From: Deltaproteobacteria bacterium
GTDB taxonomy: Bacteria; Desulfobacterota; Binatia; Binatales; Binataceae
NCBI GenBank assembly: GCA_021817345.1
Contig: JAKAVC010000025.1
Location: forward strand, 4,454 to 68,453
Direction of reading: 5' to 3'
DNA length: 64,000 nt
The notes under the pieces were generated by a model that did no database searches, had not been told where the DNA came from, and was given only the letters and a program-made list of their open reading frames with translations. A program made the position numbers and the translations under genes. This document shows, one piece after another, positions 26,301-43,911 of this stretch (the stretch's first letter is position 1; each line of letters begins with the position of its first letter).

Positions 26301-26310
26301 CTCTTTCCCA

Positions 26311-26346: not shown

Positions 26347-26578
26347 TTAAGAGCAGACTCAAGAAGGTCAGCGCCCAAGCCTTGATTCGGGTCCCGGTCC
26401 GGTAATTCGGATCCAGGCGCGAGCCCAAGCTTTATTTGTCTAGCGTCCCCTGTCCGCCGTGACGCAAAATCCATCGGCCTCGCCGGGTAAAACCTCGACG
26501 GGCCTGTCCCAGTCTTTCTAGTACAACAGGCGCCTTACAGTAAAGCCCGATTTGCCTTATACCGCGGAGCCAACAGTC
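26347..26578 (-). ncRNA. candidate cis-regulatory leader or small RNA upstream of panBCD (possibly a pan-motif-type element)
   Basis: About 230 nt with no credible ORF, lying between the PDZ-protein stop and a terminator that directly abuts the panB RBS. Function not verified. Confidence 0.25.
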
Positions 26579-27535: not shown

Positions 27536-28388
27536 TCTCGATCACGCGTCCCTCCTTGCGGAGTTTTTTCAGATGCGAACGGACCGAGCTTGCGGCGGCC
27601 GGATGCAGGTATTCGGGAACGTCGAAGTAAATTTTTTTCACGATCTCCATTACTTCGAGTCCGCCGTTGCTCGCGAGCGTGTCCAGCACCTGGCGCTCAC
27701 GAAGTTCCCGATGGGCGATATATTCGCGGAGCTTGGCGCGGGGATTGCGGATGGCCGGACCGTGGGCCGGATAGATCGTTTCGAGGTCGAGTTCGAGAAG
27801 CCGGCGCAGCGAGTCCATGTAATCGCCCAGATCGCCCGTATCGTCGGGAATTACCGTCGTTCCCGCGCCCAGCACGACATCGCCGGTGAACAGCGCGCGT
27901 TCCTCTTCCACATAATAGCACAGATGGTCGGGCGCATGACCCGGCGTATGGATCGCGCGAAGCGTCGCGCCCTCGGTGGCTATCACCGCGCCGTCGCCGA
28001 TCGGCGTGATCGGGACCCCCGCGGCTTCATCGTGTCCCGGCCACGGCTTCTTCAAAACCTCGACCCGCCCGAACCGCTCCGCCACCTGCTTTACGCCGCC
28101 GATATGATCGACGTGCGCATGGGTCAGGACGATCCGCTCGATCGCGCCGCCGTGCGCGAGTTCGTAAAGCGCCTGGACGAGGAGGTCGATCCAGAGCGGC
28201 ACGCCCTGCCCGGTATCGAGCAGGAGCGGCCGAGGCCCCGTGCCGACCAGGTAGGTGTTGGTTCCCGGCCCGGTGAACGGCGACGGGTTGTGGCCGAGCA
28301 CGGTCGCGACCCGCGGCGAAAGGCGCGCGTAGTCCGGCAGCTTCATCCCGATCATGGAATCGGTAACGATCCGCGCGGGCTTGTCCAT
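27507..28388 (-). CDS. MBL-fold metallo-hydrolase
   Basis: LTHAHVDHIGG (HxHxDH) motif; 293 aa. Confidence 0.65.
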   Translation of the reverse strand: MDKPARIVTDSMIGMKLPDYARLSPRVATVLGHNPSPFTGPGTNTYLVGTGPRPLLLDTGQGVPLWIDLLVQALYELAHGGAIERIVLTHAHVDHIGGVKQVAERFGRVEVLKKPWPGHDEAAGVPITPIGDGAVIATEGATLRAIHTPGHAPDHLCYYVEEERALFTGDVVLGAGTTVIPDDTGDLGDYMDSLRRLLELDLETIYPAHGPAIRNPRAKLREYIAHRELRERQVLDTLASNGGLEVMEIVKKIYFDVPEYLHPAAASSVRSHLKKLRKEGRVIENESRWSLIA

Positions 28389-28404
28389 CGATCCCTCCTC
28401 GGCC

Positions 28405-29175
28405 TCAGCGGCGATTGCGCTCGAAGATGAGCCTGAGTCCCTTCAGGGTCAGGAATTCGTCAACTTCTTCGATCGTCGAGGACTCGGGCGCGATCAGGTC
28501 GGCGAGTCCGCCGGTCGCGATCACGCGCGCGTTCTCTCCGCGCTCGCGGTTGATCCGATCGACGAGGCCGTCGACCAGCGCGGTGTACCCGAAGATGAGC
28601 CCCGACTGTATCGCACCCATCGTGGTCCTGCCTACCGCCTCGCGCGGGCGCACCAGCTCGACCCGGTAAAGCTTCGCCGCGTGCTCGATAAGCGCATCCA
28701 TCGAAACGCCCAGCCCCGGCGCGATCGCGCCGCCCGCGTACTCGCCGCGTCGCGTCACGTAATCGAAGGTGGTCGCGGTGCCGAAATCCACCACGATACA
28801 GGCGCTCGCGTAGCGGTCGTAGGCGGCAACCGCGTTGACGATCCGGTCGGCGCCGACCTCCTTGGGATTCTCGTACAGGATCGGCATCCCGGTCTTGATC
28901 CCCGGCCCGACGATGAGCGGCGTGCAATGGAAGTAGCGCTCGGCCACCTGCTCCATCACGCGATTGAGCGGCGGCACCACGCAGGCAACCGCGACTCCCT
29001 CAGGTTTGAGCGGAATCGGAAGCTCCGCCGCTTGCAGCAGAGTGTTCAGCACCGCGCCGTGCTCGTCGGTAGTGCGTTCGGGGTTGGTCGAGATACGCCA
29101 GTGATGGATCAATGCGTCATCGGCGTAAATCCCGATCACGGTATGACTGTTGCCAACGTCGATTGTTACCAGCAT
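28405..29175 (-). CDS. coaX: type III pantothenate kinase
   Basis: MLVTIDVGNSHTVIG and IVVDFGTATTFD motifs (ASKHA fold, CoaX family); 256 aa. Confidence 0.8.
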   Translation of the reverse strand: MLVTIDVGNSHTVIGIYADDALIHHWRISTNPERTTDEHGAVLNTLLQAAELPIPLKPEGVAVACVVPPLNRVMEQVAERYFHCTPLIVGPGIKTGMPILYENPKEVGADRIVNAVAAYDRYASACIVVDFGTATTFDYVTRRGEYAGGAIAPGLGVSMDALIEHAAKLYRVELVRPREAVGRTTMGAIQSGLIFGYTALVDGLVDRINRERGENARVIATGGLADLIAPESSTIEEVDEFLTLKGLRLIFERNRR

Positions 29176-29286
29176 CTATCGATTTCGAAACCTGCGAAGC
29201 GCCTGCACACAGAATAGAACTTCGGCGCCCATGTAAGAAGCGGGAATAATTCCACGGATGGGCCGGCGGAGGAAGCCCCGCGCGCG

Positions 29287-29748
29287 TCAGCGGGCGCGGG
29301 AAGCCGACCGGCTCGCCGTATGGGCACGCGCGACAGGAATCGCGGGCGGTATAGTCACATAACCGGGCGCAACCGGCACCGGCGAGCCCGCAGTGCGCTG
29401 ACGCTCGTAGTCGGCCACGGTTCCGTAGTCGGTGCCGTGGCGCGAACCGGATGCGGAGCGGCTCTGCCGGCCGGCCGCCAGCTCGTCGCGCTCACCGCGA
29501 TCGCACAGCGTCGAAACCGCCTCGCGGCTGCATTGTTGCGGGATTACCAGAACCTGGCGGATACCGACCCAGTCGGCTTCGGCGATAGTGTCGGGCACTT
29601 CGGAATTGTCGGCGGCAAGGACCACTCCTACCGGTCCGACAAACGCGGCAAGCGCTATCGCGCAAACCGCAATCCACGCCGCGCTCGCGCTCGAATCAGC
29701 CTTGCCCGACAGTCCGTTCAAGCTTCGCCCCCTGCGCAGGTCAGCCAC
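29287..29748 (-). CDS. hypothetical membrane-anchored protein
   Basis: 153 aa with one N-terminal TM helix and no family recognised. It could be spurious. Confidence 0.25.
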   Translation of the reverse strand: MADLRRGRSLNGLSGKADSSASAAWIAVCAIALAAFVGPVGVVLAADNSEVPDTIAEADWVGIRQVLVIPQQCSREAVSTLCDRGERDELAAGRQSRSASGSRHGTDYGTVADYERQRTAGSPVPVAPGYVTIPPAIPVARAHTASRSASRAR

Positions 29749-29878
29749 CCCTCACCGGAAGCCTCTGGCGTTTGAGGCTAGCATCGCCCGGCCCCCCGGC
29801 CAAGAAAGCCGCGGAACCCCAAAACCGCCCTGCGCGCAAGGTTTTCAGGAGCGTATCGTCCAGCTAATATCCGTCGCC

Positions 29879-30622
29879 ATGTCTCTGAGCAAAGTTGCAC
29901 TGGTAACCGGCGCGGGGCGCGGGATCGGCCGCGATATCGCGCTCAGGCTTGCGCGCGAGGGATACGCCTGCGGACTTATCGCGCGCACCAAGTCCCAACT
30001 CGAGGAAACCGCCGAACTGATCCATAAACAGGGCGGACGCGCGCTCGTCACTCCGACCGACGTCTCGAAACGCGAACAGGTGCTCGCGTCGGTCGAGGCC
30101 GTCGAACGCGAACTCGGACCCATCTCAGTCCTGGTCAACAACGCCGGCGCGTACCTAAAGAAGCGCTTCACCGACATCACCGAGGACGAGTTCGACTTCC
30201 AGTTCAAGGTCAACTGCTACGGGCCGTTCTTTTGCACGCAGGCGGTGGTGAGCCGGATGGCCGAACATGGAGGCGGGACGGTCATCTTCGTGCTCGGCTC
30301 CGAATCGCGCGGCGGACCGGCGCAATATTCGGCCTACACTGCTTCCAAGGTCGCGCAGCGCGCGATTGCGGAATCGCTCGCCTACGAGTTCGGCCATCTG
30401 GGCATCCACGCCGCGGCGCTGGATGTTGACGGGGCGGTCGACAGCCCGCGGGTGCGCGAGGCGATGCCCGACGTGGATCCTTCGTGGTTTGTCTCGCCCG
30501 AGCGCATCTGCGAGGAGATCGTCCATCTGGTGAACCAGCCGAAAAGCTCGTGGACCTTCCAGCTCGACCTGCGCTCGTATTCGCAATGGCGTCCGCGCGT
30601 CGCGGCAAAGAAGAAGGCCTGA
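29879..30622 (+). CDS. SDR-family oxidoreductase
   Basis: VALVTGAGRGIGRDIA (TGxxxGxG), NNAG, and a YSAYTASK active site (YxxxK). Start taken at the internal ATG (MSLSKV); the ORF-track N-terminal 149 aa look non-coding. Confidence 0.7.
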   Translation: MSLSKVALVTGAGRGIGRDIALRLAREGYACGLIARTKSQLEETAELIHKQGGRALVTPTDVSKREQVLASVEAVERELGPISVLVNNAGAYLKKRFTDITEDEFDFQFKVNCYGPFFCTQAVVSRMAEHGGGTVIFVLGSESRGGPAQYSAYTASKVAQRAIAESLAYEFGHLGIHAAALDVDGAVDSPRVREAMPDVDPSWFVSPERICEEIVHLVNQPKSSWTFQLDLRSYSQWRPRVAAKKKA

Positions 30623-30772
30623 CGCGGCGTTCGCGATTTGTTAAGGCGCCGCAAGCGCTCGCGGACATCGCGCGCAGGCAAAGGGACTCGCGTGAGGTGT
30701 GGTTTTCGCTCGCGGCTGATTGTATTGTCGAAATCCCGGCCGCCCGTTAGGCGGCCGGTTACGACCCCGGGT

Positions 30773-30849
30773 CGGGGCGTGGCGCAGACTGGTAGCGCAC
30801 ACGCTTGGGGTGCGTGTGGTCGCCGGTTCAAATCCGGCCGCCCCGACCA
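30773..30849 (+). tRNA. tRNA-Pro (anticodon GGG)
   Basis: Cloverleaf folded by hand: acceptor CGGGGCG/CGCCCCG, D-arm GCGC/GCGC, anticodon stem CACGC/GCGTG, loop TTGGGGT (anticodon GGG), T-arm GCCGG-TTCAAAT-CCGGC, discriminator A, encoded CCA. Confidence 0.85.
30800..30849. repeat. attL core: 3-prime 50 nt of tRNA-Pro, directly repeated at 38599-38648
   Basis: Exact 49-nt match acgcttggggtgcgtgtggtcgccggttcaaatccggccgccccgacca at both positions. Confidence 0.75.
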
Positions 30850-30862
30850 ACAAAAAACCCTT

Positions 30863-32053
30863 TCAGTTCAAGGCTTTTTCAGGAATCGCAAAACGCGGTT
30901 CTGTCTCTATCGCGCCCGACTGTGGGGGATTTTGTGGGGACCCCGAGGCAAAATCGGCCCCTTGCGGCCGCTCCAGGGCGGCGATGGCGTCCCGCCGGGC
31001 TTGCGCCCGGATATGGGCATAGCGGGCGAGCATGCGCGGGCTGACGTGGCCCGCGAGCTGGCGGATGGTCTCTTCGCTCACCCTCGGGTTTTCCGCAAGC
31101 CGGGTCACGAAGGTGTGGCGCGCGTCATAGAGCCGGCAATCGACTCCCGCCTTGCGGCGCGCGGTATCGAAGGCGCGCTTGTAGCTGTAGGCTCCCATCG
31201 GGCGGCCGAGGTCGATTCCCCAGAGATGCGGCTTGCGGCCGTTGCCCGCGAAGCCGACGCGATGGAACGGGAACAGGTAGGCGTCCGGCCCGGCTTCCGG
31301 GAACCGCGCGAGCCAGAGAGTTAGAGCGGCGGCGGCCCGTCGCGTAAGCGGGATCACGCGGCCGGTCCCGGCTTCCGTCTTCGAGCGTCCCACGACGATT
31401 TCCCCTTCCTCAATCGCCCCGTCACGCCAGCGAAGGCTAAGATCGCAGCGCCTGAGCGCCCGTGTCTCGGCTGGCCGCAAGCCCGCGTCGAGCGACAGGA
31501 TGAAGAACGGGTAGAGCGCGGGAGACGCGCTTTGCCCGATGGCGTCGAGCAGCTTCCGTTCGTCTTCGAGCGAGAGCGCGCGGCCCGTATCGGACCGCTC
31601 CCGGAGCATCTTCACGCGATGGCCGATGCCGCCCCAAAGCCCGTAATGCTTCAGGATCGCCCGCAAGGTGGCGACTTCGCAGTTAATCTGCCGCCCGGAC
31701 AAGCCCTCGCCCTGGCGCTTGCGTTGAAGCGCGGCTATGTCGTCCGCCGTGATGTCGGAAACAAGACGGCCGCCGAATTCCCGGCTGAGCTTGCCGAGAT
31801 ACTGCCGGTAATAGGCCCGCCCGAGCGGGGTAAGGGCTGTCTTCGAGGCGAACCACTGCTCGGCCGCCAACCTGAAAAGCGGCGGGCGCTCCCGCTTCGC
31901 CAGCCCGTTAAGAGCTCGCTCCAGTTCGCGCCGGCGCGCTCGCTCCGCTTCCCGCGCGATAGTCTTCGAGCTTGTCTTAGCGCTTTCGCGGACACGCGAA
32001 CCACCAAGCACGAATTCGAACCAAAAAGTTCTGCCGCGTCGGTAAACGGCCAT
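30863..32053 (-). CDS. int: tyrosine-type site-specific integrase
   Basis: C-terminal catalytic signature YDARHTFVTRL...LAGHVSPRMLARYAH (R, HxxR, H, Y); 396 aa; adjacent to the tRNA. Confidence 0.85.
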   Translation of the reverse strand: MAVYRRGRTFWFEFVLGGSRVRESAKTSSKTIAREAERARRRELERALNGLAKRERPPLFRLAAEQWFASKTALTPLGRAYYRQYLGKLSREFGGRLVSDITADDIAALQRKRQGEGLSGRQINCEVATLRAILKHYGLWGGIGHRVKMLRERSDTGRALSLEDERKLLDAIGQSASPALYPFFILSLDAGLRPAETRALRRCDLSLRWRDGAIEEGEIVVGRSKTEAGTGRVIPLTRRAAAALTLWLARFPEAGPDAYLFPFHRVGFAGNGRKPHLWGIDLGRPMGAYSYKRAFDTARRKAGVDCRLYDARHTFVTRLAENPRVSEETIRQLAGHVSPRMLARYAHIRAQARRDAIAALERPQGADFASGSPQNPPQSGAIETEPRFAIPEKALN

Positions 32054-32057
32054 CTGC

Positions 32058-32819
32058 TTACCCTCCGTTTGATTGCTTCGTTCGCTCTCTCACTTTAGCC
32101 GCGATGGCGGCGCCCTTGGTCTTGCGCACCCAACGCACGTAGGAGGCATGGCGCCGCTTCCGCTGTTCTTCTTCCCCATGCCTCTCTCGGAAGCGCGCCT
32201 GGCGCGCGCGCTGAGAACATGCGCGAGAGCAGTAGGCTCCGCGCTTGCGGCGGACAAATGGCTTGTTGCAAGGCTTCCAGGAGCATCGCGCGAGGCGCCG
32301 CCCTTCGGCGGCCAGCACGTCGATCATCGCCATGCGGAAGATTTCGCGGGAATCGCCGCCCCATGAGGACGTGAAGCTCTGCGTGATGGCGCGCCACACT
32401 CTTCCCGCCTTGCCAACCTCGAAAACCACATGTCCGCCGCCCAGCAGCTCGGCGATAGTATGCTCGGCCTCCCGCGCGAGCACGGCCAATTCCCTTGCAC
32501 TTAGATCGTAATCGACGGTTGTCACCCTCCCCGCGGGATCATGGAGGGTCATTGCGCCATTCTGAGCATGCCCCGTGCGCAAGCTAAAGAGCGACACTTC
32601 GGCGCGCCTTTGAACCAGCGCGGCCCGATCCATGCGGGCGGGCGCGGGCGCGGACGCGAACCCGAGCAGCCACTTGAGGCGGCTCAAGTCGCTCTTTCCG
32701 ACCCGCTTCCTTGCCTCACGCTCCGTCGGAGCCCACTCGACGGCGGCTGCGCGCACAAGGCGTCTTGGGGATTCTGTCTCGAAGTTTGGCATAACGCTCA
32801 TCCGCATGATTCGAGTCAT
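32058..32819 (-). CDS. hypothetical protein with a C-terminal CxxC...CxxxC zinc-ribbon-like motif
   Basis: 253 aa with a C-terminal WKPCNKPF...CSRACSQRARQ motif, inside the island next to int. Confidence 0.35.
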   Translation of the reverse strand: MTRIMRMSVMPNFETESPRRLVRAAAVEWAPTEREARKRVGKSDLSRLKWLLGFASAPAPARMDRAALVQRRAEVSLFSLRTGHAQNGAMTLHDPAGRVTTVDYDLSARELAVLAREAEHTIAELLGGGHVVFEVGKAGRVWRAITQSFTSSWGGDSREIFRMAMIDVLAAEGRRLARCSWKPCNKPFVRRKRGAYCSRACSQRARQARFRERHGEEEQRKRRHASYVRWVRKTKGAAIAAKVRERTKQSNGG

Positions 32820-32887
32820 TACTCGCCAACACTAATTTTCTAGTTGAGCGTTGTCAAGTAGCGCTGCCGACCGCTACGCTCGTCGGC

Positions 32888-33085
32888 ATGGGAACCCTCA
32901 AATTGCTGACGATCGAGCAGGCGGCGGAGCGGCTTGGCATGAAGCCCGTAACGGTGCGAATGTGGGCTGCGACGCGGAAAATCGCGCGCTGCAAAATCGG
33001 CCGCGCGGTCCGAATCCCTGAAAGCGAAATCGAGCGGCTGATCGCCGCGTCGTTGATACCCACCGCGCCGGAGTCGCGTCGATGA
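32888..33085 (+). CDS. xis: excisionase/AlpA-family helix-turn-helix DNA-binding protein
   Basis: 65 aa; LTIEQAAERLGMKPVTVRMWAATRKIARCKIGRAVRIPESEIERLI matches the excisionase-family HTH pattern. Confidence 0.6.
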   Translation: MGTLKLLTIEQAAERLGMKPVTVRMWAATRKIARCKIGRAVRIPESEIERLIAASLIPTAPESRR

Positions 33086-34674
33086 GATCGCCCGAGATCG
33101 ACGCGACCGATGAGTTGGCCGGCGCCCGGCCGCCCGACCGCGCCGCGCTGTTGCGGGCCGAAGCCGCCCGGCTGGCGAAGCTGGATGATGTGGGCTACAT
33201 GGTCGAGCGGCGCGCCGTTGCGAAGGCGCTAGGCGTACCGGTCGGCGAGCTGGACAAGCTGGTTGACAAGGCAAAGCCGAAACCGGCCGCCGCGAAAGCC
33301 GACACACTCGCGCCGCCGCCGCCGGTGCCATGGCCCGAACCGGTCGAGCCAGCCGCCGTGCTCGATGAGCTGCGCGCCTTCATTCGGCGTTTCATCGTGC
33401 TGGACGAGCACGCCGTGACCGCGGTCGCGCTGTGGATCGCGTTCGCGCACGCCTTCGAGATCGCCGAGGTGAGCCCGCGCTTGGCCGTTCTCAGCGCGAC
33501 GAAGCGCTGCGGGAAGACGCGCTTGATCGAATTGCTTGGGCTTTTGTGTCCGAGCGCGATCGCGGCATCGAACCTGACCCCAAGCGCGATTTTCCGCACA
33601 ATCGACGCCGGCTTTTGCACGCTTCTGATCGACGAAGCCGATACTTTCACGCGCGAAAACGGCGAGCTGCGCGGCCTTCTCAACAGCGGCCACACTAAAA
33701 CCGCCGCCTATGTAATCAGAAGCGTCCCCACGGGAGAGGGTGGCAAGGAATGGACGCCGCGCCGGTTTTCAACGTGGTGTCCGATCGCAATTGCCGCTAT
33801 CGGCCGCCTGCCAGAAACGTGGCTGGACCGTGCCATCGTGATTCCAATGAAGCGCAAACTGCGCTCGCAGCCTGTCGAGCGTCTCACTCGCGCGAATCAA
33901 GCCGCGCGCGCGCAAGCAGCGGCCCTGGCATCGAAGTTGGTCCGACTTGCGCAAGACAGCCTTGAGGCGGTGCGCAATGCCACCCCAGAGCCGCCGCCCT
34001 TGGATAGCGATCGGCAGGTTGACAACTGGGAATTGCTGCTCGCGATCGCCAACCTGGGCAGCCCCGACTGGGCAAAGCGAGCCCGCGCCGCCGCCGTCGC
34101 CCTGAGCGGCAAGCAGGATGAAACGGCCGATTCGTTGCCGCTCAAGATGCTCGCGGACGTGTACTCGATCTTCGAAGCCGAGCATCTCGAATTAATTGGG
34201 TCAGCCGAGCTTTGCGAAAAGCTTGTAGCTCTGGAGCTTTCCCCTTGGAGCACGATTTCGCGCGGCAGACCCCTAACGCCAGCTCGGCTTGCTCGGCTGC
34301 TTCGACAGTTTGAAGTCTATCCTCGCAACGCCGGCAAACAGAACGGTTACGCCCGAAAAGATGTCGCGCGCGCGTATACCCCCTACCAAAGTTCCGAAGT
34401 TCATAAAACCCTTGGGAGAGTAGCACAAAACGACGATTTCAAAGTTCCATGCACTGGAACCTTGAAAACTGCGGATTGTCCTACGGAGAGAACAACTTCC
34501 GGAACTTCGGAACTTTCAAAGGGGGGGATGGACACCAATATGTCTGTTTCGGCGGCCGAGGAGGCCGAAATCGACAGGGCGTTGGCCGACGAGGGGGAGA
34601 CGTGCCCGCACGGCGACGACTCGCTGCTGTGCGGGCGATGCGAGTCCGAGGCTCAATTTGAGGAGATCGAATGA
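33082..34674 (+). CDS. DUF3631-like replication-associated protein (P-loop-like LLIDEAD segment)
   Basis: 530 aa with an LLIDEADTF Walker-B-like segment. The family is commonly found next to the primase in integrative elements. Call is by recollection of the family pattern. Confidence 0.4.
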   Translation: MRSPEIDATDELAGARPPDRAALLRAEAARLAKLDDVGYMVERRAVAKALGVPVGELDKLVDKAKPKPAAAKADTLAPPPPVPWPEPVEPAAVLDELRAFIRRFIVLDEHAVTAVALWIAFAHAFEIAEVSPRLAVLSATKRCGKTRLIELLGLLCPSAIAASNLTPSAIFRTIDAGFCTLLIDEADTFTRENGELRGLLNSGHTKTAAYVIRSVPTGEGGKEWTPRRFSTWCPIAIAAIGRLPETWLDRAIVIPMKRKLRSQPVERLTRANQAARAQAAALASKLVRLAQDSLEAVRNATPEPPPLDSDRQVDNWELLLAIANLGSPDWAKRARAAAVALSGKQDETADSLPLKMLADVYSIFEAEHLELIGSAELCEKLVALELSPWSTISRGRPLTPARLARLLRQFEVYPRNAGKQNGYARKDVARAYTPYQSSEVHKTLGRVAQNDDFKVPCTGTLKTADCPTERTTSGTSELSKGGMDTNMSVSAAEEAEIDRALADEGETCPHGDDSLLCGRCESEAQFEEIE

Positions 34675-35135
34675 CTCCGGCCGAACTGATCAACCAAGCC
34701 CAGCATTACGGCGCGCGGTTACTGATCGTGGGCGGAAAGCTCGCGGTCGCGCCGCCCGGCCGCGTACCGCCCGATCTGAAAAGCAGGCTCCGCGAACACG
34801 CGCCCGAAATTCGCGCCCTGCTGACCCAACCGTCCCCCGCCGCGCCCGAGCCGTCCGCCGCCGACCGGGCCGCTTGGGCCCGCGAGGTGACCCCCAATTC
34901 GCGCCAGCCGCTCATCCCGCCCGAGGTCCGCAGGAAGATAGAGGGCATCGAGGGCGAGGCGCGCCGCCTGGGCTGGCCAGCGGAATTGCTTTGGAGCGCC
35001 GGGTTCTGGGACTGCCCGCGCGGCCTGGCGGCCGTGCTCGATGAGGACGATCAGATCGGCGCGGTCACGCCCGACTTCATCGAGATCGTGAAAATGCGCC
35101 GCGACTTGCTGCGCTTTCAACGCCGTGCTGCTTGA
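34671..35135 (+). CDS. hypothetical island protein
   Basis: 154 aa, overlapping stop/start with its neighbours, no family recognised. Confidence 0.3.
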   Translation: MTPAELINQAQHYGARLLIVGGKLAVAPPGRVPPDLKSRLREHAPEIRALLTQPSPAAPEPSAADRAAWAREVTPNSRQPLIPPEVRRKIEGIEGEARRLGWPAELLWSAGFWDCPRGLAAVLDEDDQIGAVTPDFIEIVKMRRDLLRFQRRAA

Positions 35136-36027
35136 CCTGGACACCATGCTGGGCCGCCTTCGCGGCGTCCGCCGGGCCGGGAGCGGCTACGTCGCCTGCT
35201 GCCCCGCTCATGCCGACCAAAACCCGAGCTTGTCCATCCGCGAAGGGAAGGACCGCATCTTGCTCCATTGTCACGCCGGCTGCGATTACCGTTCCATCCT
35301 TCGCGCCCTGGAGCTGGAGCCGCAGCGGAGCGGGCCGGCAATACCCTTACCCAGTGGGGGTATTCACCCGGCCGACGATAGCGCCCGCATCGAGCACGCC
35401 CGCCGGCTCTGGCGCGAGGCGAAGCCCCTGCCCGGCACGCCCGCCGAACGCTACCTCGAAGGGCGGGGAATCTCGCTCCCGAGCTGGCCGCCGACCCTGC
35501 GCTTTCACCCGGCCTGCCCGCATCCGTCCGGCAAGCGCCTGCCCGCTCTGATTGCCGCCATCTGCCGCTATCGCGAAAGGATGCTTCGCCTTCGCGGCCT
35601 GCATCGGGTCTTCATCACGCCCGACGGCCGCAAGGCCGCCATCGAGCCGCGCAAAGCCGCGCTCGGAGCCGTGAAGGGCGCAGCCGTCTACCTTTCGCGT
35701 CCGACCGCGACGCTCGCCGTCGCCGAGGGCGTCGAGACTGCGCTCGCCACGATGCTCCTGTGCCGGCACGATCCGCGCTTCGAGGGCTGGAGCTACGCCG
35801 CCGCCGTCTCGGCTGGCAACCTGCCCGCCATCGAGCTGCCGCCCGAGGTCAAGGTCGTAATCATCGCCGCCGATAACGACGAACCGGGACGCGAGGCCGC
35901 AATCAAAGCCGCCCATCGCTTCATCCGCGAAGGGAAGGACGCCCGCATCGCGTACCCGCCCAACGCCAAGGATTTCAACGACGCTCTGCTTAACGAGCGG
36001 CGCGAAAAGGAAAGCGCCAATGGGTGA
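35125..36027 (+). CDS. DNA primase, CHC2 zinc-finger plus Toprim domain (P4-alpha-like N-terminal primase)
   Basis: CPAHADQNPSLSI...LHCHAGCD forms the CHC2 zinc finger. VAEGVETAL and IIAADNDEPGREAA form the Toprim E and DxD motifs. Confidence 0.6.
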   Translation: MLLDLDTMLGRLRGVRRAGSGYVACCPAHADQNPSLSIREGKDRILLHCHAGCDYRSILRALELEPQRSGPAIPLPSGGIHPADDSARIEHARRLWREAKPLPGTPAERYLEGRGISLPSWPPTLRFHPACPHPSGKRLPALIAAICRYRERMLRLRGLHRVFITPDGRKAAIEPRKAALGAVKGAAVYLSRPTATLAVAEGVETALATMLLCRHDPRFEGWSYAAAVSAGNLPAIELPPEVKVVIIAADNDEPGREAAIKAAHRFIREGKDARIAYPPNAKDFNDALLNERREKESANG

Positions 36028-36268
36028 CTATCCCAACAGCGGGATCATGTTCCGCGAGGACCGCAAGGACCGCCCCACCTCGCGGGATTACAAGGGCGAA
36101 GGCAATCTCGCCTGTCCGCACTGCGGTGCGCGGATCGGACTTTGGCTGTCGGGCTGGATTAAGACCGCCCGCAACGGCGCGCGGTTCCTGAGCCTCAGCT
36201 TCAAACCGAAAACCGAGCGGGCGGCCGCCAGCGCCCCGGCGCGCGATGGCGATGACATCCCCTTCTGA
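36020..36268 (+). CDS. small DUF736-like protein with a CxxC pair
   Basis: 82 aa; GIMFRED...RDYKGEG...FLSLSFKPK resembles DUF736 proteins found on ICEs and plasmids. Weak call. Confidence 0.3.
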   Translation: MGDYPNSGIMFREDRKDRPTSRDYKGEGNLACPHCGARIGLWLSGWIKTARNGARFLSLSFKPKTERAAASAPARDGDDIPF

Positions 36269-36485
36269 CTTCTCTCTCGCGCTTACCATCGTCGGCGACG
36301 TCATGGTTCGCGGCGCGGCGAGCCATCCCGGCGACGACTGGCGCGCCTACCCGCCCGCCTTCCACGTTGCGAAGGCCGAGCGGCACGTGCGGCTTTACCG
36401 CGAAGGGGACAAAAGCGAGCCGCACCTTGCGCACGCCGCCACGCGCCTGCTGATGGCCCTGGAGCTAAGCTGTGAGCGGCCTTGA
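36246..36485 (+). CDS. hypothetical small protein
   Basis: 79 aa; its 3-prime end is part of a local tandem duplication. Confidence 0.25.
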   Translation: MAMTSPSDFSLALTIVGDVMVRGAASHPGDDWRAYPPAFHVAKAERHVRLYREGDKSEPHLAHAATRLLMALELSCERP

Positions 36486-36581
36486 GCGGGCGTTCGTTAA
36501 GCTGACCGGCCATACCCCGACCCCGTACCAGTATTCGGCATGCCAGCGTACGCTTGCTAATGAGCCTGGAGTTGACCGTCT

Positions 36582-36923
36582 GTGAGCGGCCTTGAGAAGG
36601 CGTTCCTGCTCCACTTGCGCGCCGCCGGGCTGCCCGCGCCGGTCCGCGAGCATCGGTTCCACCCTTCGCGAAGATGGCGCTTCGATTGCGCGTGGCCCGA
36701 GCTGAAGCTTGCGGTCGAACTCGAAGGCGGGACATGGATTCACGGCCGCCACAACCGGGGCCGGGGCTTCGAGGCCGACTGCGAGAAGTACAACGCCGCC
36801 GCCCTGGCGGGTTGGCGCGTGCTTCGCTTCACGGCCGCGATGGTCGAATCGGGCGCGGCGCTCGAACAAGTCCGCCAAGCTTGGGCGGCCAGCACGTGCC
36901 TGGCCTTGGCGGCCGGCCATTGA
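36582..36923 (+). CDS. DUF559/Vsr-like endonuclease-domain protein
   Basis: 113 aa; HRFHPSRRWRFDCAWPELKLAVELEGGTWIHGR matches the DUF559 (very-short-patch-repair-like REase fold) pattern. Confidence 0.45.
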   Translation: MSGLEKAFLLHLRAAGLPAPVREHRFHPSRRWRFDCAWPELKLAVELEGGTWIHGRHNRGRGFEADCEKYNAAALAGWRVLRFTAAMVESGAALEQVRQAWAASTCLALAAGH

Positions 36924-36924
36924 T

Positions 36925-37149
36925 TCACGCGGCAAGGTCGAAGGACACGCCCGACGGATCGCCCGGCCGCTCGCCATGCTCGATTTCATCGGCGATCACC
37001 CGCAAAGCCAGCGCCTTCGCCTTGGCGACCGCCTCTTCGCGGCTCGCGCCGTAAGCCATCACGCCCGGAAGCGCCGGAATGTCCGCGATCCAGCGGCCGT
37101 CCCGCTCGCGGTCGATTTCGATCCTGAGCCGGATTGTGTCGGCGTTCAT
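36925..37149 (-). CDS. HicB-family (UPF0150) antitoxin-like protein with no adjacent HicA
   Basis: MNADTIRLRIEIDRERDGRWIADIPALPGVMAYGASREEAVAKAKALALRVIADEIEHGE fits the HicB N-terminal domain. Start taken at the internal Met. Confidence 0.5.
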   Translation of the reverse strand: MNADTIRLRIEIDRERDGRWIADIPALPGVMAYGASREEAVAKAKALALRVIADEIEHGERPGDPSGVSFDLAA

Positions 37150-37230
37150 GCGTAGCGCAAGACGAGGCCCACAAACCCGAGGGAAGGCCGGTTCCGGGCA
37201 CGGGTTTTTACCATGAGTGAGCATCACTTT

Positions 37231-37665
37231 TCATTTCAGCCGTGGATCGTCGCTCGCAAGGCAAGCCGTTGGGCGTTCAGCCTGTCCCGCTACAAACTGA
37301 TCGACGTAATCTTTGGCAAGCGGCTGACCCGCCTTGCGTGCGTCTTCCATTATAACTTTGGCAAGCCGCTCATCTTGTCGCCGCTCTTGTTCCATTCTCT
37401 GGCGCGAGTGTGTCCATGCGCGACAACCCGAAAGTGTTTCAAAAGTGCCAATCTGGACCCACTTGGAAAACGGAGCGAAGTAGTCGGGGCCCGTCGCCTC
37501 GTAATCACAGATCATCTCGAATTTTTGCCACGACTCGGGGGAGCATCTAATATCCGTATCGGCTTGGGTTGGCGCCAGCATCAGATACCAGCCGGCAATC
37601 GCGAGCGCAGCGGCATGGCCTAGCTTCATAGCGCGCATCCCGCCATCGTTATCTGTCTTGAACAT
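37231..37665 (-). CDS. secreted Cys-containing hypothetical protein (AT-rich gene)
   Basis: 144 aa with a signal peptide and four Cys. Local GC is clearly below that of its surroundings. Confidence 0.35.
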   Translation of the reverse strand: MFKTDNDGGMRAMKLGHAAALAIAGWYLMLAPTQADTDIRCSPESWQKFEMICDYEATGPDYFAPFSKWVQIGTFETLSGCRAWTHSRQRMEQERRQDERLAKVIMEDARKAGQPLAKDYVDQFVAGQAERPTACLASDDPRLK

Positions 37666-37681
37666 TGTGAGCGTGCCCCGC

Positions 37682-38248
37682 TCACCTTCGCGAGCGCCGT
37701 TCGGCTTCCCTCAGCGCCCGAAGCGTGGCCTTCAGCGCGGCCCAGCCATCCGCCACCGCGGGTGCGCTGTCTTTCGCCACCGGGCCGCCTTGCGCTTCGG
37801 CGCGAGCGTCGGCGCGCACAGAGATTACGCCTGTCCCCGTCGTTAGGGAAGGGTTTTCACGCTTGCTCCAGCGAGCCCTGTTGGCCCGCTTCGCGAGCAT
37901 GGACCGGCCCCAGGCGCGGCTGCGGGGATGGAGCGTCATGGAGACCGCGGTGGCCAGCGCCAGCTGCGGCTTCATCCCCCGGCTGCGATAGTCGCGCTCG
38001 CGCTCCTGAATCTCGCTCCACTGCGCCTCGGTGAACTTCGCGCGGGCGATTGCCGTCCCCGTGGCGTGGCGGAAGTTCCGCTCCGCCTCGGTCCGCTGCC
38101 GTGCGGGCGGCGGCTCCGGTTCCCGTTCCGGTTGCGTCACGGGCGGGGCATAGCGCGAAGGGCGGTAACCGCCCCGGACTCCGCCCCAGGAATTGAAGAC
38201 CACCATGCCGCCAGTCTGCCACGGATCGGCGTCGCCAGGGAATTGCAA
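37682..38248 (-). CDS. hypothetical island protein
   Basis: 188 aa, basic, no family recognised. Confidence 0.3.
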   Translation of the reverse strand: MQFPGDADPWQTGGMVVFNSWGGVRGGYRPSRYAPPVTQPEREPEPPPARQRTEAERNFRHATGTAIARAKFTEAQWSEIQERERDYRSRGMKPQLALATAVSMTLHPRSRAWGRSMLAKRANRARWSKRENPSLTTGTGVISVRADARAEAQGGPVAKDSAPAVADGWAALKATLRALREAERRSRR

Positions 38249-38598
38249 TCTCCATCGCGAAGCGCGCGGGAACTATGCACGGCTCTGGGCGTGAGCGGCG
38301 CGCGCGGGAGGGGCTCGGAGCAATGGGAGGGCAGGAGGCGGGCCGCGGACGCCTTGGCGGGCCGCGGACGCCTTGGCGGGCCGTTTCCGTGCCCGCGCGG
38401 GGCATTCCTGATTAGCCAGTGGAATAGCCAGTGAGTATCGCTTCGGGACTGTGGGGGATTTTGTGGGGACCCTCAATCAATTTCGGTATCGCTCGGTAGC
38501 GGTCGGGCTTTCGGCTCGAAGGCGAGAAAGCCCTTGGGGGACAAGCGTTTGACGCATATTGAGCGCTACCAAGTGATACTGGCGAAAAGTCCATTTTT

Positions 38599-38648
38599 AC
38601 GCTTGGGGTGCGTGTGGTCGCCGGTTCAAATCCGGCCGCCCCGACCAG
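38599..38648. repeat. attR core: partial tRNA-Pro 3-prime copy
   Basis: Exact copy of tRNA-Pro nt 28-76. The upstream tRNA half is absent. Confidence 0.75.
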
Positions 38649-38771
38649 AAACAATCGACCAGCCGCGCCGCATTCGCACGCCTCAGCGGAAAACGAGCCG
38701 CGCGAGCCGCCTTTTCCGGTGGTTCCTCCTGTCTCTGCTCGCCATTTCCACGCTCCGAGATTGCGGACAGG

Positions 38772-39620
38772 TTAGAAGAACCATCCCGATTCTGAGGATG
38801 GCCCGAAGATCGCGCCCACGAACCGCTCCAGTTCCAGGTTAAATTTCATGATCACATGGTCCGAGCCGCGCGTGAGGCCGAAACCGGGGCCGAGATTGTA
38901 CTCGATCCCGTGCGGGAGCTCGCCCCAGACCACGGGGAAAATGTAGTGTTGCTGTGCGTTGAGCGGGTCGGTGTCGTCCATTAATCCGGCCCCGCCGTAA
39001 AATTCGAGGCCGGGTGACAGGTAGCGCATCCAGCGATAATAGGCGCCGGTTGCGTAACCGAATTCGAAACCTTCGTGGACGCCAACTCCTTTCAACACTT
39101 TCTCGAAAATTGGATTGGCTATGAAGGAGAATCGACCGATGTCCTTTTCCACGATCGGGCGCAGTTCGAGCTCGATATCGGCGTCATCGAACTGCGGCGT
39201 ATGATGCCATTCGAGTTCCGCGTACCAGCCGAGGTCAACGGGCAGGACCTCCGGGTCAAATAGCCGCCCACGCAAGCGGTATTCCGAGCCGGCGTACCAG
39301 TATCCATGTCCGCTCGGCGAAGCCATTAGAAGATAAGCTGAGGCTTCGATCCGATCGGTCAGCCCGTAAGTGAGTTCGTACTGGTTGTACCACATCCCTT
39401 GGCTACGGAAGGTTCCGGCGGCGGTGCCTTCGCCTCCTTTGCTGTGCCCGTTGGCGATAACAGCGTTGTCGGTCTCCAGCTCCATCGTGCCGCGGCTCTC
39501 AGTGGCGTAGGGGTAGACCTCAAATTCCCATGGATCCACCTGAGCCCGAACGCTGCTCGCGCCCAGAACAGCGGTGAACAGCAAGGCTCCCATCCCAACT
39601 AATCGCAGAAGATTCTTCAT
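38772..39620 (-). CDS. putative outer-membrane beta-barrel protein (MetA/phenol-pathway-like transporter family?)
   Basis: Signal peptide, alternating aromatic/Gly-rich strands, C-terminal ...GWFF (terminal Phe). Confidence 0.4.
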   Translation of the reverse strand: MKNLLRLVGMGALLFTAVLGASSVRAQVDPWEFEVYPYATESRGTMELETDNAVIANGHSKGGEGTAAGTFRSQGMWYNQYELTYGLTDRIEASAYLLMASPSGHGYWYAGSEYRLRGRLFDPEVLPVDLGWYAELEWHHTPQFDDADIELELRPIVEKDIGRFSFIANPIFEKVLKGVGVHEGFEFGYATGAYYRWMRYLSPGLEFYGGAGLMDDTDPLNAQQHYIFPVVWGELPHGIEYNLGPGFGLTRGSDHVIMKFNLELERFVGAIFGPSSESGWFF

Positions 39621-39636
39621 AGAGGGCCTTTCACAC

Positions 39637-40098
39637 TTATTGTTGTTTCCGCGGCGAGGACGTCGTCAGAACAGACTCGACCCAGCGTTCCAGCGCGGCC
39701 CGATCGGCGTTGGTAAGGCGGGCGCCAGGATGCATCAGCCGATAGGGCCAGGGCGGCATGTTCTCTTCGCGCACCGCCCGTCCCATCCATTCGAGCTTTC
39801 TCCGCCGAGTAGCGGGGTAGTAGCTCCTCCACTCGGAAAAGTTGATTTCCTTGCGCCCGAGGTCCACGTCGCGAACGATGAGCCACGACAGGGGAGCCAC
39901 ATGGCTGTACCAGGGCCAGTGACTCTCGTTGGAATGGCAGTCGTAGCAGGCGCGCTTTAGAACTTCGTCGATCCGCGGCGGAGCGAGTAACTTGCCATGG
40001 GACGGCGGATTAGTTCTTTGTGCCGGGACAAACTGGATTCCGGCCAGCACCGCCACTGTCACGAATGCCACTGCCCGAGGGATTCGTGATGAAGTCAC
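39637..40098 (-). CDS. haem-binding-domain protein
   Basis: CYDCHSNESHWPWYSHVAPLSWLI...EINFSEW matches the haem-binding domain family (CxxCH present). Confidence 0.5.
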   Translation of the reverse strand: MTSSRIPRAVAFVTVAVLAGIQFVPAQRTNPPSHGKLLAPPRIDEVLKRACYDCHSNESHWPWYSHVAPLSWLIVRDVDLGRKEINFSEWRSYYPATRRRKLEWMGRAVREENMPPWPYRLMHPGARLTNADRAALERWVESVLTTSSPRKQQ

Positions 40099-40145
40099 AA
40101 TCCGCAGCCCGCGCCAGCGACCACGCGACCGGTTGCCGACCCACC

Positions 40146-40529
40146 CTACTTCGCCACGATTGCGCCCTCGGGCACGTCCTGATGGAAGTCGTCATAGAAG
40201 TCGTAGCGGCCGGGGCCGAGCGCCGGCAGGCGGACCGTAATCGTCTCGCCCGGCGTCATCGCAACTTCGCGGTTGAGCTTGAAGCTCTCGAACTCGATGG
40301 TTTCCTTGCTGGCGTTGATAACTTTGAGAACGACAGGTTTTCCCGCCGTAACCTCGACTGTTTGAGGTATGAAGTGATGGTTCTCGAAGCGGATTTCCTG
40401 GCCGCCCATCGCCCGTGACGGGCTTGGAAAAAGGAAGCTGGCGCTAATCCCCAGGAAGGCGATGGTCAGCGTAAATCGTGGAAGGTTCATATTTTCTGGT
40501 GCCTCCATGATTTTGAGAATAATTCTCAA
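40146..40529 (-). CDS. cupredoxin-like domain protein
   Basis: Signal peptide, then EIRFENHHFIPQTVEVTAGKPVVLKVINASKETIEFES, a plastocyanin-like fold without an obvious complete Cu site. Confidence 0.45.
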   Translation of the reverse strand: MRIILKIMEAPENMNLPRFTLTIAFLGISASFLFPSPSRAMGGQEIRFENHHFIPQTVEVTAGKPVVLKVINASKETIEFESFKLNREVAMTPGETITVRLPALGPGRYDFYDDFHQDVPEGAIVAK

Positions 40530-40959
40530 TATCGTTACACTCAGCCCCTGTCAAGAGCGGATGAGGATCGCGCGAGTTGGCCGACGAACGGCTGGGATCA
40601 ACTTGATGGGAGGTCAATTCACGCTTAGTGGCGCATAGGGTCCGGAGGGTCATGATCGAGGAACACGGATTCGGATCTCCAGCGTAAAATGCGATCGAAC
40701 AACTCGGCCGCATTGACAAATTCGGATAGCTCGTCCGCGCGCTGGCGGGCGGGAAATCTCGGATGGGGGCGTGGCGGCTACGGTGAAATCGGCGAGGTTA
40801 GCCTATCTCCCGAATCGCATCGCATCTGTGGACGGAGCGCGCGTTTTAGCGCAGAGTCTCCTCAATTCCTTCCGGCGAAACGACGCGCCGCGAACGTCGG
40901 GTCACGGCTCGCGCCGCCGCCATTACTTTGTCGCCGGAAAACCTGGGAGAGATGACGCG

Positions 40960-41739
40960 ATGGAATATCTGGTTCGTGACGGGGTCAAGCTTTACTACGA
41001 CATGGGCGGAAGGGGCTCGCCGCCTATTGTTTTCGTGCACGGATGGACCTGCAATCATACCTACTTCGCGCCGCAGCAGAAGTATTTCGCCAAGCGCCAT
41101 CGCGTCGTATCGGTCGATCTTCGCGGACATGGCAAAAGCGGCAAACCCGAGCAGCAGTACTCGATCGCCGGCTTCGCCGACGACCTCGCGTGGATGTGCG
41201 GCGAGCTTGGGCTCAAGAAGCCGGTCGTCGTTGGCCATAGCATGGGCGGGATGGTCGCGCTTGAGCTGGCTGGCTCGCATCCCGACGTTCCGAGTACAAT
41301 CGTGACGTGCGATTCGCCGATCGTGGTCCCCGCTCAACTTGCAACGAATATGGCCGCGACACTCGAACAGTTCCACAAGCCCAACTGGCGCAAGGCGCAT
41401 CGGGCCTTTATCGCCGATGCGCTCTTCATCCCGAGCGACGACCCCAAGCGCAAGGAGCGCATCCTGAAGGATATGACCTCTGCGCCCGATCACGTGACGG
41501 TCGGATGCTTCGACGCGATCGCCCAAGCCGACACCGAAGGCGCGGCGCGCAAGTGCAAGGTGCCGTTCCTGAACATTCTTGCAACAAACCCGCTATGCGA
41601 CGTCGCGCGGCTGCGCGAGCTATGTCCGTCCGTGGTGATCGGCCAGACGGTTGGCGCGGGCCATTTCCATCAACTCGAGGTGCCCGATCAGGTCAATGCA
41701 ATGATCGAGCGCTTCCTGAAGGTCTCGGGCGTCAAATGA
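40960..41739 (+). CDS. alpha/beta-fold hydrolase
   Basis: PIVFVHGW..., GHSMGG nucleophile elbow, and a C-terminal GAGHFHQLE. Start taken at the internal MEYL. Confidence 0.65.
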   Translation: MEYLVRDGVKLYYDMGGRGSPPIVFVHGWTCNHTYFAPQQKYFAKRHRVVSVDLRGHGKSGKPEQQYSIAGFADDLAWMCGELGLKKPVVVGHSMGGMVALELAGSHPDVPSTIVTCDSPIVVPAQLATNMAATLEQFHKPNWRKAHRAFIADALFIPSDDPKRKERILKDMTSAPDHVTVGCFDAIAQADTEGAARKCKVPFLNILATNPLCDVARLRELCPSVVIGQTVGAGHFHQLEVPDQVNAMIERFLKVSGVK

Positions 41740-41974
41740 ATTCTCATTTGGACATGCGGACGCAACTGCGTGCGCCCCGATTTAGCGATTCCTTTCCGCT
41801 GGATTCTTCGTTAATTGTGGCATATGCCTGCGAAAGGGGCGTCTGGCGGCTCGGTTTCGACGTTTTTGCGGAATTTTTTACTTACGATATGCGGCATTTC
41901 CTGACCATCTCGGGCACATAGGGCTGCTGACTGGGGAAGATTCACTTATGCTTTGTTAAGCAAGAACTGCTTGC

Positions 41975-42496: not shown

Positions 42497-42555
42497 TCAA
42501 ACGGCGCGGCGGGAACTCCCGCCGCGCCGTTGCGTGCTTCGGCCGTAGCCGCGAA

Positions 42556-43893: not shown

Positions 43894-43911
43894 CGCGCCA
43901 CCTCCGGGTGA

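Follow-up and report, generated by a model that had tools for sequence, protein, structure and literature searches.

The DNA window analysed here, a 64-kb stretch (64,000 nucleotides) of contig JAKAVC010000025.1, carries a small integrative element of 7,798 bp in a tRNA-Pro gene. The tRNA-Pro(GGG), located at positions 30773–30849 on the plus strand, is the only tRNA that ARAGORN detected in the window, and Rfam concurs with this call (tRNA, 63 bits). Its 3′ 49 nucleotides (30801–30849, plus strand) form the attL core. The same 49 bp occur again, without a mismatch, at 38599–38647 on the plus strand. This second copy is the attR core, a partial copy of the tRNA 3′ end that Rfam reports as a tRNA/tmRNA-like fragment only; beyond the tRNA-Pro and its partial copy, the Rfam scan returned nothing. 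A perfect 49-mer repeat in 64 kb cannot be attributed to chance, and because the repeat is the 3′ portion of the tRNA, the tRNA-Pro is still intact after the insertion. The element is neighboured by an SDR gene on one side and by the gene of an uncharacterised 282-aa protein on the other.

A near-identical genome without the element was found in L008 (ENA ERZ27237319, contig k141_294292), which was located via a CoaX protein identical to that of the window. Exact-sequence look-ups of the 282-aa flank protein and of the replication protein RepAM of the element returned no records. L008 aligns to window positions 20030–30849 with 98.5% identity and to positions 38599–46967 with 97.6% identity. 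The two alignments overlap by precisely the 49-bp core, of which L008 has a single copy, and the intact tRNA-Pro of L008 runs directly into the right flank of the window. This is a clean, empty attB, and from the comparison the insert measures exactly 7,798 bp. As L008 is approximately 98% identical in both flanks and yet lacks the element, the insertion is a recent one with exactly defined ends. The element has thus inserted precisely and regenerated the tRNA, leaving a 49-bp core at either end. A sequence-only reading of this DNA had proposed a discrete integrative element at the 3′ end of the tRNA-Pro and had named the comparison with an empty site as a check; L008 bears out the proposal with exact ends. 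The same reading had correctly described a perfect 49-bp repeat of the tRNA 3′ end, but its coordinates (30800–30849 and 38599–38648) were off by one at each outer end.

The more distant genomes L010–L015 (80–84% identity) also lack the element. At this site, L012 has another island together with an additional tRNA-Pro copy, which indicates that the locus is an integration hotspot. The two tRNA-Pro copies (L012:5125–8344) are 3.1 kb apart and have a 29-bp direct repeat in common, and the island adjoining the pair carries genes for PIN, a BrnA-like antitoxin, an acetyltransferase, a Dam-type methyltransferase and HTH proteins. This island shows an independent use of the same tRNA-Pro hotspot. 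To the right of attR, window positions 38648–40948 encode the 282-aa protein, a Haem_bd protein and a cupredoxin, at a GC content of ~0.58–0.60 compared to ~0.65 upstream. Both the window and L008 have this segment, whereas L010–L015 lack it, their tRNA-Pro region running directly into an alpha/beta-hydrolase gene (window position ~40949). The segment seems to be variable DNA of older date at this tRNA hotspot.

Integration and excision functions

The gene next to attL (30863–32053, minus strand) encodes a tyrosine integrase of 396 aa (PF00589, E 1.4e-15; phrog_1, E 1.1e-49). The motif residues R, K, HxxR, H and Y are visible in its translation. Separated from int by a gap of 4 nt, orf253 (32058–32819, minus strand) encodes a 253-aa protein with a C-terminal C-x4-C-x12-C-x3-C zinc ribbon of the CGNR type (weak zf-CGNR match, E 0.0028). 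Only two homologues of it were found, among which the cysteines and a FVRRKRGAYCSRACSQ block are invariant. The AF2 model of this protein, built on an alignment of three sequences, has a pLDDT of 58 and is too poor for use of the fold. We regard orf253 as a putative regulator or recombination accessory. On the other strand, xis (32888–33085, plus strand) encodes an excisionase/AlpA-like HTH_17 protein of 65 aa with matches to PF12728 (E 5.5e-13), to the TIGR01764 model ‘excise’ (E 1.3e-10) and to phrog_66. According to the gene layout, the 68 bp at 32820–32887 are a divergent control region between the leftward orf253-int and the rightward xis-rep operons. A consensus promoter scan gave one site, the same as the random expectation, and no promoter was confirmed in this 68-bp region.

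Close to both ends, the element carries an identical 26-bp repeat, GACTGTGGGGGATTTTGTGGGGACCC, with two TGTGGGG units in each copy. The P′-arm copy (30918–30943, plus strand) lies 69 bp inside attL in the 3′ tail of int, and the P-arm copy (38447–38472, plus strand) lies 127 bp inside attR. TGTGGGG occurs four times in the 64 kb, and all four occurrences fall inside these two repeats. In the relative L002, the same arm geometry was observed at equivalent distances from the core with another doubled motif (TTGCTAACGGATTGCTAAC; TTGCTAAC). By analogy with lambda-family integrases, the TGTGGGG repeats are putative arm-type sites of the integrase, which would flank the core in the excised circle. 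The attP junction of such a circle would read ...GAAAAGTCCATTTTT + 49-bp core + ACAAAAAACCCTTTC....

Beside the P arm, a tandem of two TAGCCAGTG units was read from the sequence at 38413–38433 (plus strand). Both this tandem and the P-arm repeat are kept in a sister element (L133/L134), and the tandem is, speculatively, a candidate accessory binding site, perhaps for Xis. The non-coding DNA between orf188 and the P-arm repeat also contains a perfect 19-bp tandem repeat in 2.5 copies (GGCGGGCCGCGGACGCCTT; 38337–38383), which is apparently present in fewer copies in L133, as judged from translated ORFs. This repeat may have arisen by slippage or may serve as a binding site. It falls in a non-coding stretch at 38249–38598; another such stretch lies at 36486–36581.

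The sister element was found on contigs L133–L136 from four JGI samples. It shows 85% nucleotide identity to the right end of our element (window 37079–38647), P arm and core included, and its orf188 product is 79% identical at the amino acid level. In the sister element, orf144 is replaced by a gene for a 289-aa membrane protein, with the first 17 codons and the HicB-like neighbour retained, which points to a cargo-exchange hotspot between orf100 and orf188. In place of the chromosomal flank, the sister element abuts a remnant of an integrase 3′ end of ~300 bp. This junction of a right end with integrase-3′-like sequence was considered as an attP junction and rejected as evidence of excision, because only ~48 integrase codons follow the core, the arm repeats do not match and unrelated DNA comes next. 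The arrangement appears to be a serial integration beside a decayed older element. Searching the JGI metagenome contigs for the attP pattern (P-arm side, core and P′-arm side) gave 0 matches. The attL control also gave 0 matches, so that the element itself is absent from this collection and the null result for attP is uninformative.

The integrase is 68% identical to that of L137, which is sited at a tRNA-Asn. In L137 (1875–4205), a trio of int (68% aa identity), orf253 (43%) and xis (54%) adjoins the tRNA-Asn(GTT), and the other 1.9 kb of this contig showed no RepAM. The int-orf253-xis trio thus seems to be mobile as a module that is independent of the replicon and has changed its tRNA target.

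Replication functions and cargo

The gene that follows xis (33082–34674, plus strand) encodes a helicase-like P-loop ATPase of 530 aa with a DUF3631 domain (PF12307, E 4e-30; 105.8 bits versus a cutoff of 24). DUF3631 is the domain of RepAM, the replication initiator of the actinomycete integrative conjugative element pMEA300 (PMC3218068), and we annotate the protein as a RepAM-type replication initiator. Its Walker A (G144, K145) and Walker B (D184, E185, D187) residues are invariant in 23 homologues. In fold, its AF2 model (pLDDT 69) is similar to the ATPase/helicase portion of phage primase-helicases (E 8.6e-9 and 7.7e-8), and its matches in the PDB were weak and all to replication ATPases. 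Next to repAM, orf154 (34671–35135, plus strand) encodes a small TubC_N-like protein of 154 aa (PF18563, E 1.7e-5). Homologues of orf154 lie after RepAM in L002, L017 and L055, and a TubC_N match follows RepAM in L025, L054, L131 and the P0016 contig. The third gene (35125–36027, plus strand) encodes a DnaG-type primase of 300 aa, in which profile matches delineate a CHC2 zinc finger, DUF7146 and Toprim_3 (PF23639, E 2.8e-29; PF13362, E 4.5e-16; PF01807, E 6e-6; phrog_510, E 1.8e-47).

Many of the ~1,000 RepAM homologues are fusions with a primase domain (Toprim, Prim-Pol or DUF3854). As RepAM homologues are often fused to a primase and RepAM folds like phage primase-helicases, RepAM and the separate primase can be read as a split ‘pri-rep’ unit. 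In the rightward set, each gene overlaps or adjoins the next: ATGA overlaps link xis to repAM and repAM to orf154, and orf82 overlaps the primase stop codon. The excision and replication functions are thus built for joint expression.

The 3′ part of repAM contains a putative replication origin at 34379–34525, which consists of inverted AAGTTCC/GGAACTT arrays round a central palindrome. The arms are 24 nt long, 88% complementary and 99 nt apart. Seven AAGTTCC/GGAACTT copies were counted in 161 nt, where 0.4 would be expected, and as single-stranded DNA the region folds into a hairpin (dG -32.9 kcal/mol, z -5.85). The residues encoded by the origin region (437–490) have a pLDDT below 50 and are predicted to form a disordered linker, which suggests that the constraint on this segment lies on the DNA and not on the protein. 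In L002, L017 and L007 the same architecture was observed at the same position with other repeat sequences, for example AAGTGTCC.

The distribution of this feature was assessed at 90 non-redundant RepAM loci (L002–L130) from many phyla, with members in Geobacter, Smithella, Acidobacteria, Nitrospirae, NC10, Proteobacteria and other groups, by scoring the best inverted repeat in successive 200-nt intervals. The interval that starts at the end of the DUF3631 domain had a mean score of 12.4, compared to 5.3–6.5 in every other interval and to ~5.6 for the other intervals overall. A score of at least 14 was reached at 34 of the 90 loci in the interval after the domain and at 0–1 loci elsewhere. For pMEA300, it has been shown experimentally that RepAM binds multiple 8-bp repeats, which form a hairpin in the 3′ end of repAM itself (PMC2440964). 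By analogy, the hairpin of our element is the predicted RepAM binding site and origin. The comparison of the ~90 loci indicates that the binding-site architecture of pMEA300 extends far beyond the actinomycetes. Both features that define the RepAM-replicon (pMEA type) group, a DUF3631/RepAM-domain initiator and a hairpin of ~8-bp repeats in the 3′ end of repAM, were found in the sequence of the element, which by this measure is a member of the group.

To the right of the primase lie small cargo genes. The first of these, orf82 (36020–36268, plus strand), encodes a small Cys-containing protein with a weak and tentative likeness to phage single-stranded DNA-binding (SSB) proteins (phrog_18154, E 5e-5; phrog_7364, E 3e-4). 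It is followed by orf79 (36246–36485, plus strand), which covers only a domain like the N-terminal part of a dATP/dGTP diphosphohydrolase (PF18909, E 1.1e-9; phrog_801). The product of orf113 (36582–36923, plus strand) is a DUF559/Vsr-like endonuclease-fold protein of phage type (phrog_503, E 1.7e-34). Its homologues were found in 145 phage records, mostly of Vibrio and Acinetobacter phages, with identities of up to 69%, reached by a protein of Burkholderia phage vB_BmuP_KL4 that is encoded beside a DnaB-like helicase. The conservation of orf113 across phyla is unusually high for a small cargo gene. A HicB-like small protein is encoded at 36925–37149 on the minus strand (weak PF15919 match, E 0.004; phrog_497, E 1.7e-4). 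Judging from the sister element L133, its likely start is MNADT, while the mechanical open reading frame (ORF) extends to 37227; no HicA partner was seen. The last two genes, orf144 (37231–37665, minus strand), with a hydrophobic N-terminus and a lower GC3 of 0.59, and orf188/174 (37682–38206, minus strand), which adjoins attR, have no family matches. For orf188, a single homologue was found in a collection of 5.8 billion proteins. These orphans may be novel analogues of capsid-morphogenesis or interference genes. At the level of BLAST, no cargo gene is common to the element and its relatives beyond the sister element.

In total, 12 ORFs have coding-type GC3 or family support, and these were scanned with Pfam, PHROGs, NCBIfam and PADLOC. 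No capsid, terminase, portal, tail, lysis, relaxase, type IV secretion system (T4SS) or FtsK-type protein was detected among them. PADLOC found no defence system in the element and gave weak primase-domain matches to DRT models only. The sequence-only reading had listed an integrase, a zinc-ribbon protein, an excisionase-type HTH protein, a DUF3631 protein, a hypothetical protein, a CHC2/Toprim primase and small cargo, and had noted that capsid, terminase and conjugation genes are lacking; the profile searches agree with every one of these calls and with the absences. The identity of the DUF3631 protein as RepAM and the hairpin within its gene are additions to that reading.

Relatives at other tRNA genes

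A RepAM with 60% identity to that of the element is encoded by a 7.67-kb element at tRNA-Sec, which was found on at least 13 contigs. Other relatives are located in tRNA-Glu, Val, Met, Arg, Ala, His and Ser genes, with delimited spans of 6.2–13.5 kb. In the core that recurs among them, int and a variable gene next to it are combined with genes for HTH_17/AlpA, primase, RepAM and TubC_N-like proteins; this core is the same in L025, L131, L002 and L017. The primase of the relatives is of DnaG type or a Prim-Pol, and its gene is found before RepAM, after RepAM or fused to it. The closest homologues and the syntenic contigs are labelled as metagenome-assembled genomes (MAGs) of Candidatus Binataceae or ‘Deltaproteobacteria’.

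One relative, L025 (RZZN01000111.1, 7,378 bp), belongs to a Gammaproteobacteria MAG and is a circular contig with a terminal overlap of 99 bp that is not tRNA-like. It carries int, orf239, HTH_17, a Toprim primase, DUF3631, a TubC_N-like protein and four ORFs without an assigned family. L025 represents, in free or concatemeric form, a minimal element with the same design as the element in the window. Three IMG/VR contigs of 10–11 kb, like L025, assemble as circles, and their junctions are not att-like.

Some relatives encode packaging functions. A census of 141 ORFs from 12 delimited relatives comprised 13 integrases, 12 DUF3631, 7 HTH_17, 5 TubC_N and 3 HK97 capsid proteins, 2–3 small terminases and 1 large terminase. 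The 25 commonest families of this census include no conjugation family (relaxase, coupling protein or FtsK-type translocase). The tRNA-bounded islands L045, L054 and L056 all carry a fusion of primase and RepAM (primase::RepAM). L054 and L056 combine it with a small terminase (TerS) and a major capsid protein in 8–10 kb, and L045 also has a capsid protein. The circular relatives in IMG/VR carry a capsid gene, TerS or the large terminase TerL.

Six islands of 8–11 kb (L045, L054, L056, L098, L099 and L101), which are tRNA-bounded or circular, present a common set of primase::RepAM, a TubC_N-like protein, TerS and an HK97 capsid protein, and one of them also has a large terminase of gpA type. 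These islands, from Acidobacteria/Desulfobacteraceae MAGs and IMG/VR, look like compact capsid-encoding satellites.

Mode of transfer and likeness to known elements

Our data suggest, with a probability of roughly 0.55, that the element is an intact, recently acquired, integrative-replicative and helper-dependent ‘hitcher’ of 7,798 bp, most likely a phage satellite. In the cycle that we propose, the tyrosine integrase would bind the core and the flanking TGTGGGG arm-type repeats, and would be co-transcribed leftward with the zinc-ribbon protein orf253. The divergent rightward operon xis - repAM - orf154 - primase - orf82 - orf79 would couple excision to replication. Int and Xis, possibly together with orf253, would excise a 7.8-kb circle. 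RepAM would then bind the inverted AAGTTCC repeats in the hairpin of its own gene and open the DNA or load there, and the DnaG-type primase would prime synthesis. The copies would leave the cell with a helper, probably by packaging into helper-phage capsids as a minimalist satellite in the fashion of PICMI. Since the element encodes nothing for its own transfer, a helper is needed. Packaging by a helper phage is the likeliest route, to which we give an even chance. It is favoured by the TerS and capsid genes that relatives carry on the same chassis, by the phage-type cargo and by the precedent of PICMI (PMC10803314), a satellite that needs no packaging genes of its own (PMC10803314).

Several observations weigh against this interpretation. 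Excision, replication and packaging are deduced from the anatomy of the element and from knowledge of its families. We know of no helper phage for the element. Neither the element nor its closest relatives L002 and L017 carry a TerS, capsid-redirecting or interference gene, and no packaging genes are recognisable in these two relatives. A RepAM homologue was found in 1 of 50,697 phage records, so that RepAM is nearly absent from sequenced phages. The primase has relatives in 731 plasmid records (402 of them conjugative) at 37–40% identity, compared to 128 phage records at ~30% identity; as a discriminator between phage and plasmid it points weakly to plasmids and is not diagnostic. Furthermore, the RepAM module also serves conjugative actinomycete integrative conjugative elements (AICEs), so that it does not fix the transfer route (PMC3218068), and whether the origin works in theta or rolling-circle mode is undecided even for pMEA300 (PMC2440964).

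The lone phage record with a RepAM homologue is Pseudomonas phage Phipami28 (PV029746.1). The match at 31473–32495, annotated as hypothetical, shows 37% identity over 65% of the protein.

The plasmid relatives of the primase raise the possibility that the element is an integrative mobilizable element, the circle of which is moved by the T4SS of a co-resident conjugative plasmid or integrative conjugative element. It would use an unrecognised oriT that mimics that of the helper, or a helper relaxase acting in trans, and the primase would prime the complementary strand. Plasmids, of which 402 of the 731 records are predicted to be conjugative, hold the closest database relatives of the CHC2-DUF7146-Toprim_3 primase, and this primase also matches the C-terminal part of a TraI relaxase/helicase model (TIGR02760, E 8e-8). 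In conjugative AICEs, which replicate by means of RepAM, transfer depends on replication (PMC3218068, PMC2440964), and the element carries no packaging gene. On the other hand, its 12 ORFs include no relaxase, coupling protein or FtsK-type translocase, and none of these is among the 25 commonest families of the 141-ORF census, in which capsid and terminase are found. The identifiable cargo (the DUF559 nuclease, the dGTP-diphosphohydrolase-like domain and the SSB-like protein) belongs to phage families. We consider mobilization by conjugation unlikely.

The lack of all transfer and packaging genes in our scans would also agree with an element that has no dedicated horizontal route. This could be a degenerate satellite that formerly had a capsid, or a former AICE-like element, which persists mostly by vertical inheritance and might move occasionally by transformation, vesicles or generalized transduction. 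Elements of the pMEA type with RepAM are reported to co-evolve mostly with their hosts in the integrated state (PMC2440964), and decayed integrase remnants lie beside the sister element at tRNA-Pro. Against such decay, all 12 ORFs are intact and the att cores are perfect 49-mers. A genome with 98% identical flanks lacks the element, hence its movement is recent. The same minimal gene set is found in several phyla, once as a circle, which argues for a stable lifestyle. We consider an element with no dedicated horizontal route unlikely. A defective or cryptic prophage remnant would account for the phage-type integrase and excisionase, for some cargo of PHROG families and for the integration into a tRNA. 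It is very improbable in view of a span of 7.8 kb with exact ends and a complete plasmid-like replication module with its own putative origin, in a whole family of the same compact design. No virion structural, packaging, terminase or lysis genes were found among the ORFs, and there is no pseudogene debris. That the DNA is not a prophage but a satellite or mobilizable element had been proposed before from the sequence, and the gene content supports it.

The helper-dependent satellite reading can be widened, tentatively and with less than even odds, to the RepAM islands as a whole. They may constitute one large, phylum-spanning and undescribed family of phage satellites, of which our element would be a satellite of a phage of Binatia-like bacteria. 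Such a family would comprise minimalist forms of 6–8 kb with int - xis - RepAM/ori - TubC_N-like - primase (the element, L002, L017, L025 and L131) as well as forms of 8–11 kb with TerS and an HK97 capsid protein (L045, L054, L056 and the circular IMG/VR contigs). If this is true, the RepAM islands share their replication module and in-gene origin with actinomycete AICEs, and our element is packaged although it encodes no packaging function, for instance as head-full concatemers like those of PICMI.

Helper-dependent elements of this class, small islands at tRNA genes with int, xis/alpA and a primase, have been recognised before, and in kind the element is not surprising; its replication module is unusual. 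It is new as a minimalist hitcher with a RepAM replicon outside the Actinobacteria, not as a new kind of system; the literature that we searched describes RepAM replicons for actinomycete conjugative elements only, and one paper in it mentions DUF3631. The element also provides a clean case of recent insertion, with the corresponding empty site, from an uncultured lineage that has been little studied. One RepAM chassis appears with three solutions for transfer: none, TerS and capsid in relatives, and an FtsK-type conjugation gene in the literature. This makes the chassis suited to asking how a unit of integration and replication switches between hitch-hiking routes. A DUF3631 domain followed by an inverted-repeat hairpin can serve as a marker for satellite-like elements outside the Proteobacteria and Firmicutes.

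Among known systems, the replicon resembles that of pMEA-type AICEs (pMEA300, pMEA100 and pSE211). These share with the element a tyrosine integrase and Xis, integration at the 3′ end of a tRNA, RepAM, and a RepAM binding site of identical 7–8-bp repeats that form a hairpin inside the 3′ end of repAM (PMC2440964). RepAM is occasionally partnered with a primase there (PMC3218068). Unlike them, the element has no Kor regulator, no Nudix gene and no Tra protein of the FtsK/SpoIIIE type (PF01580) among its 12 ORFs, and no remaining ORF is large enough for one. At 7.8 kb versus 13–23 kb it is about half their size, its xis lies upstream and not downstream of repAM, and it has a dedicated DnaG-type primase. 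AICEs have hosts of the Actinomycetales, whereas the host here is not an actinomycete, to judge from the Candidatus Binataceae and Deltaproteobacteria labels of the homologues. A RepAM homologue has also been noted in the small mycobacterial prophage-like element phiRv2 (PMC2440964). By description, L045, L054 and L056 can be likened to this compact type, whereas the element in the window has no structural genes.

Of the satellites, PICMI of the Vibrionaceae (6–8 kb) is by analogy the best functional counterpart for a satellite free of packaging genes. It combines int, a gene that adjoins or overlaps it, an AlpA/HTH_17 gene, one or two small genes, a primase and variable cargo, and it has no capsid-remodelling or terminase genes (PMC10803314). 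The SatelliteFinder model dedicated to PICMI comprises int, AlpA, primase and fis; of these, the integrase and the AlpA/HTH_17 protein (profile PF05930 or PF12728; PMC10803314) are present in the element. In contrast, PICMI is inserted beside fis and has a DUF3987/DUF5906 primase, whereas the element lies in a tRNA-Pro and has a CHC2-Toprim primase with RepAM. Helper phage, induction and concatemer packaging have been demonstrated for PICMI.

The sequence-only reading had called the architecture P4/PICI-like. This description holds for the layout of int, xis/alpA and primase, but not for the hijacking and packaging genes that define P4-like satellites, PICI and cfPICI. The left end resembles that of PICI/SaPI, in which int is followed by regulatory genes in divergent orientation, an HTH gene of alpA/xis type and a pri-rep module that has an origin of the iteron type at rep. 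The PICI model of SatelliteFinder asks for at least four of five core components, including terS and/or a capsid-morphogenesis gene (PMC10085698). At most three of the five are present in the element: the integrase, a candidate AlpA component that matches HTH_17 (PF12728) and the TIGR01764 excisionase model and not Phage_AlpA (PF05930), and RepAM with the primase as a putative functional analogue of pri-rep. Neither terS nor a capsid-morphogenesis/interference gene was detected with Pfam and PHROGs. cfPICI needs capsid, portal, adaptor, connector and terminase, none of which is present in the element; TerS and an HK97 capsid protein in the manner of cfPICI are seen only in distant relatives of the RepAM family. 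With P4-like satellites, which are defined by seven core components, the element has in common a tRNA integrase, an AlpA-like HTH protein, a primase/helicase function, an origin of short repeats and a size near 10 kb. Unlike P4, it showed no psu, sid, delta or epsilon and no Ogr/Delta-type activator in Pfam and PHROGs searches, and its replication protein is split into RepAM and a DnaG-type primase and is not homologous to P4 alpha at the family level. On its gene content, the element would not be classified as P4-like, PICI, cfPICI, PICMI or AICE. By analogy, it would work like the left end of a PICMI or PICI that has been fitted with a pMEA-type replicon.

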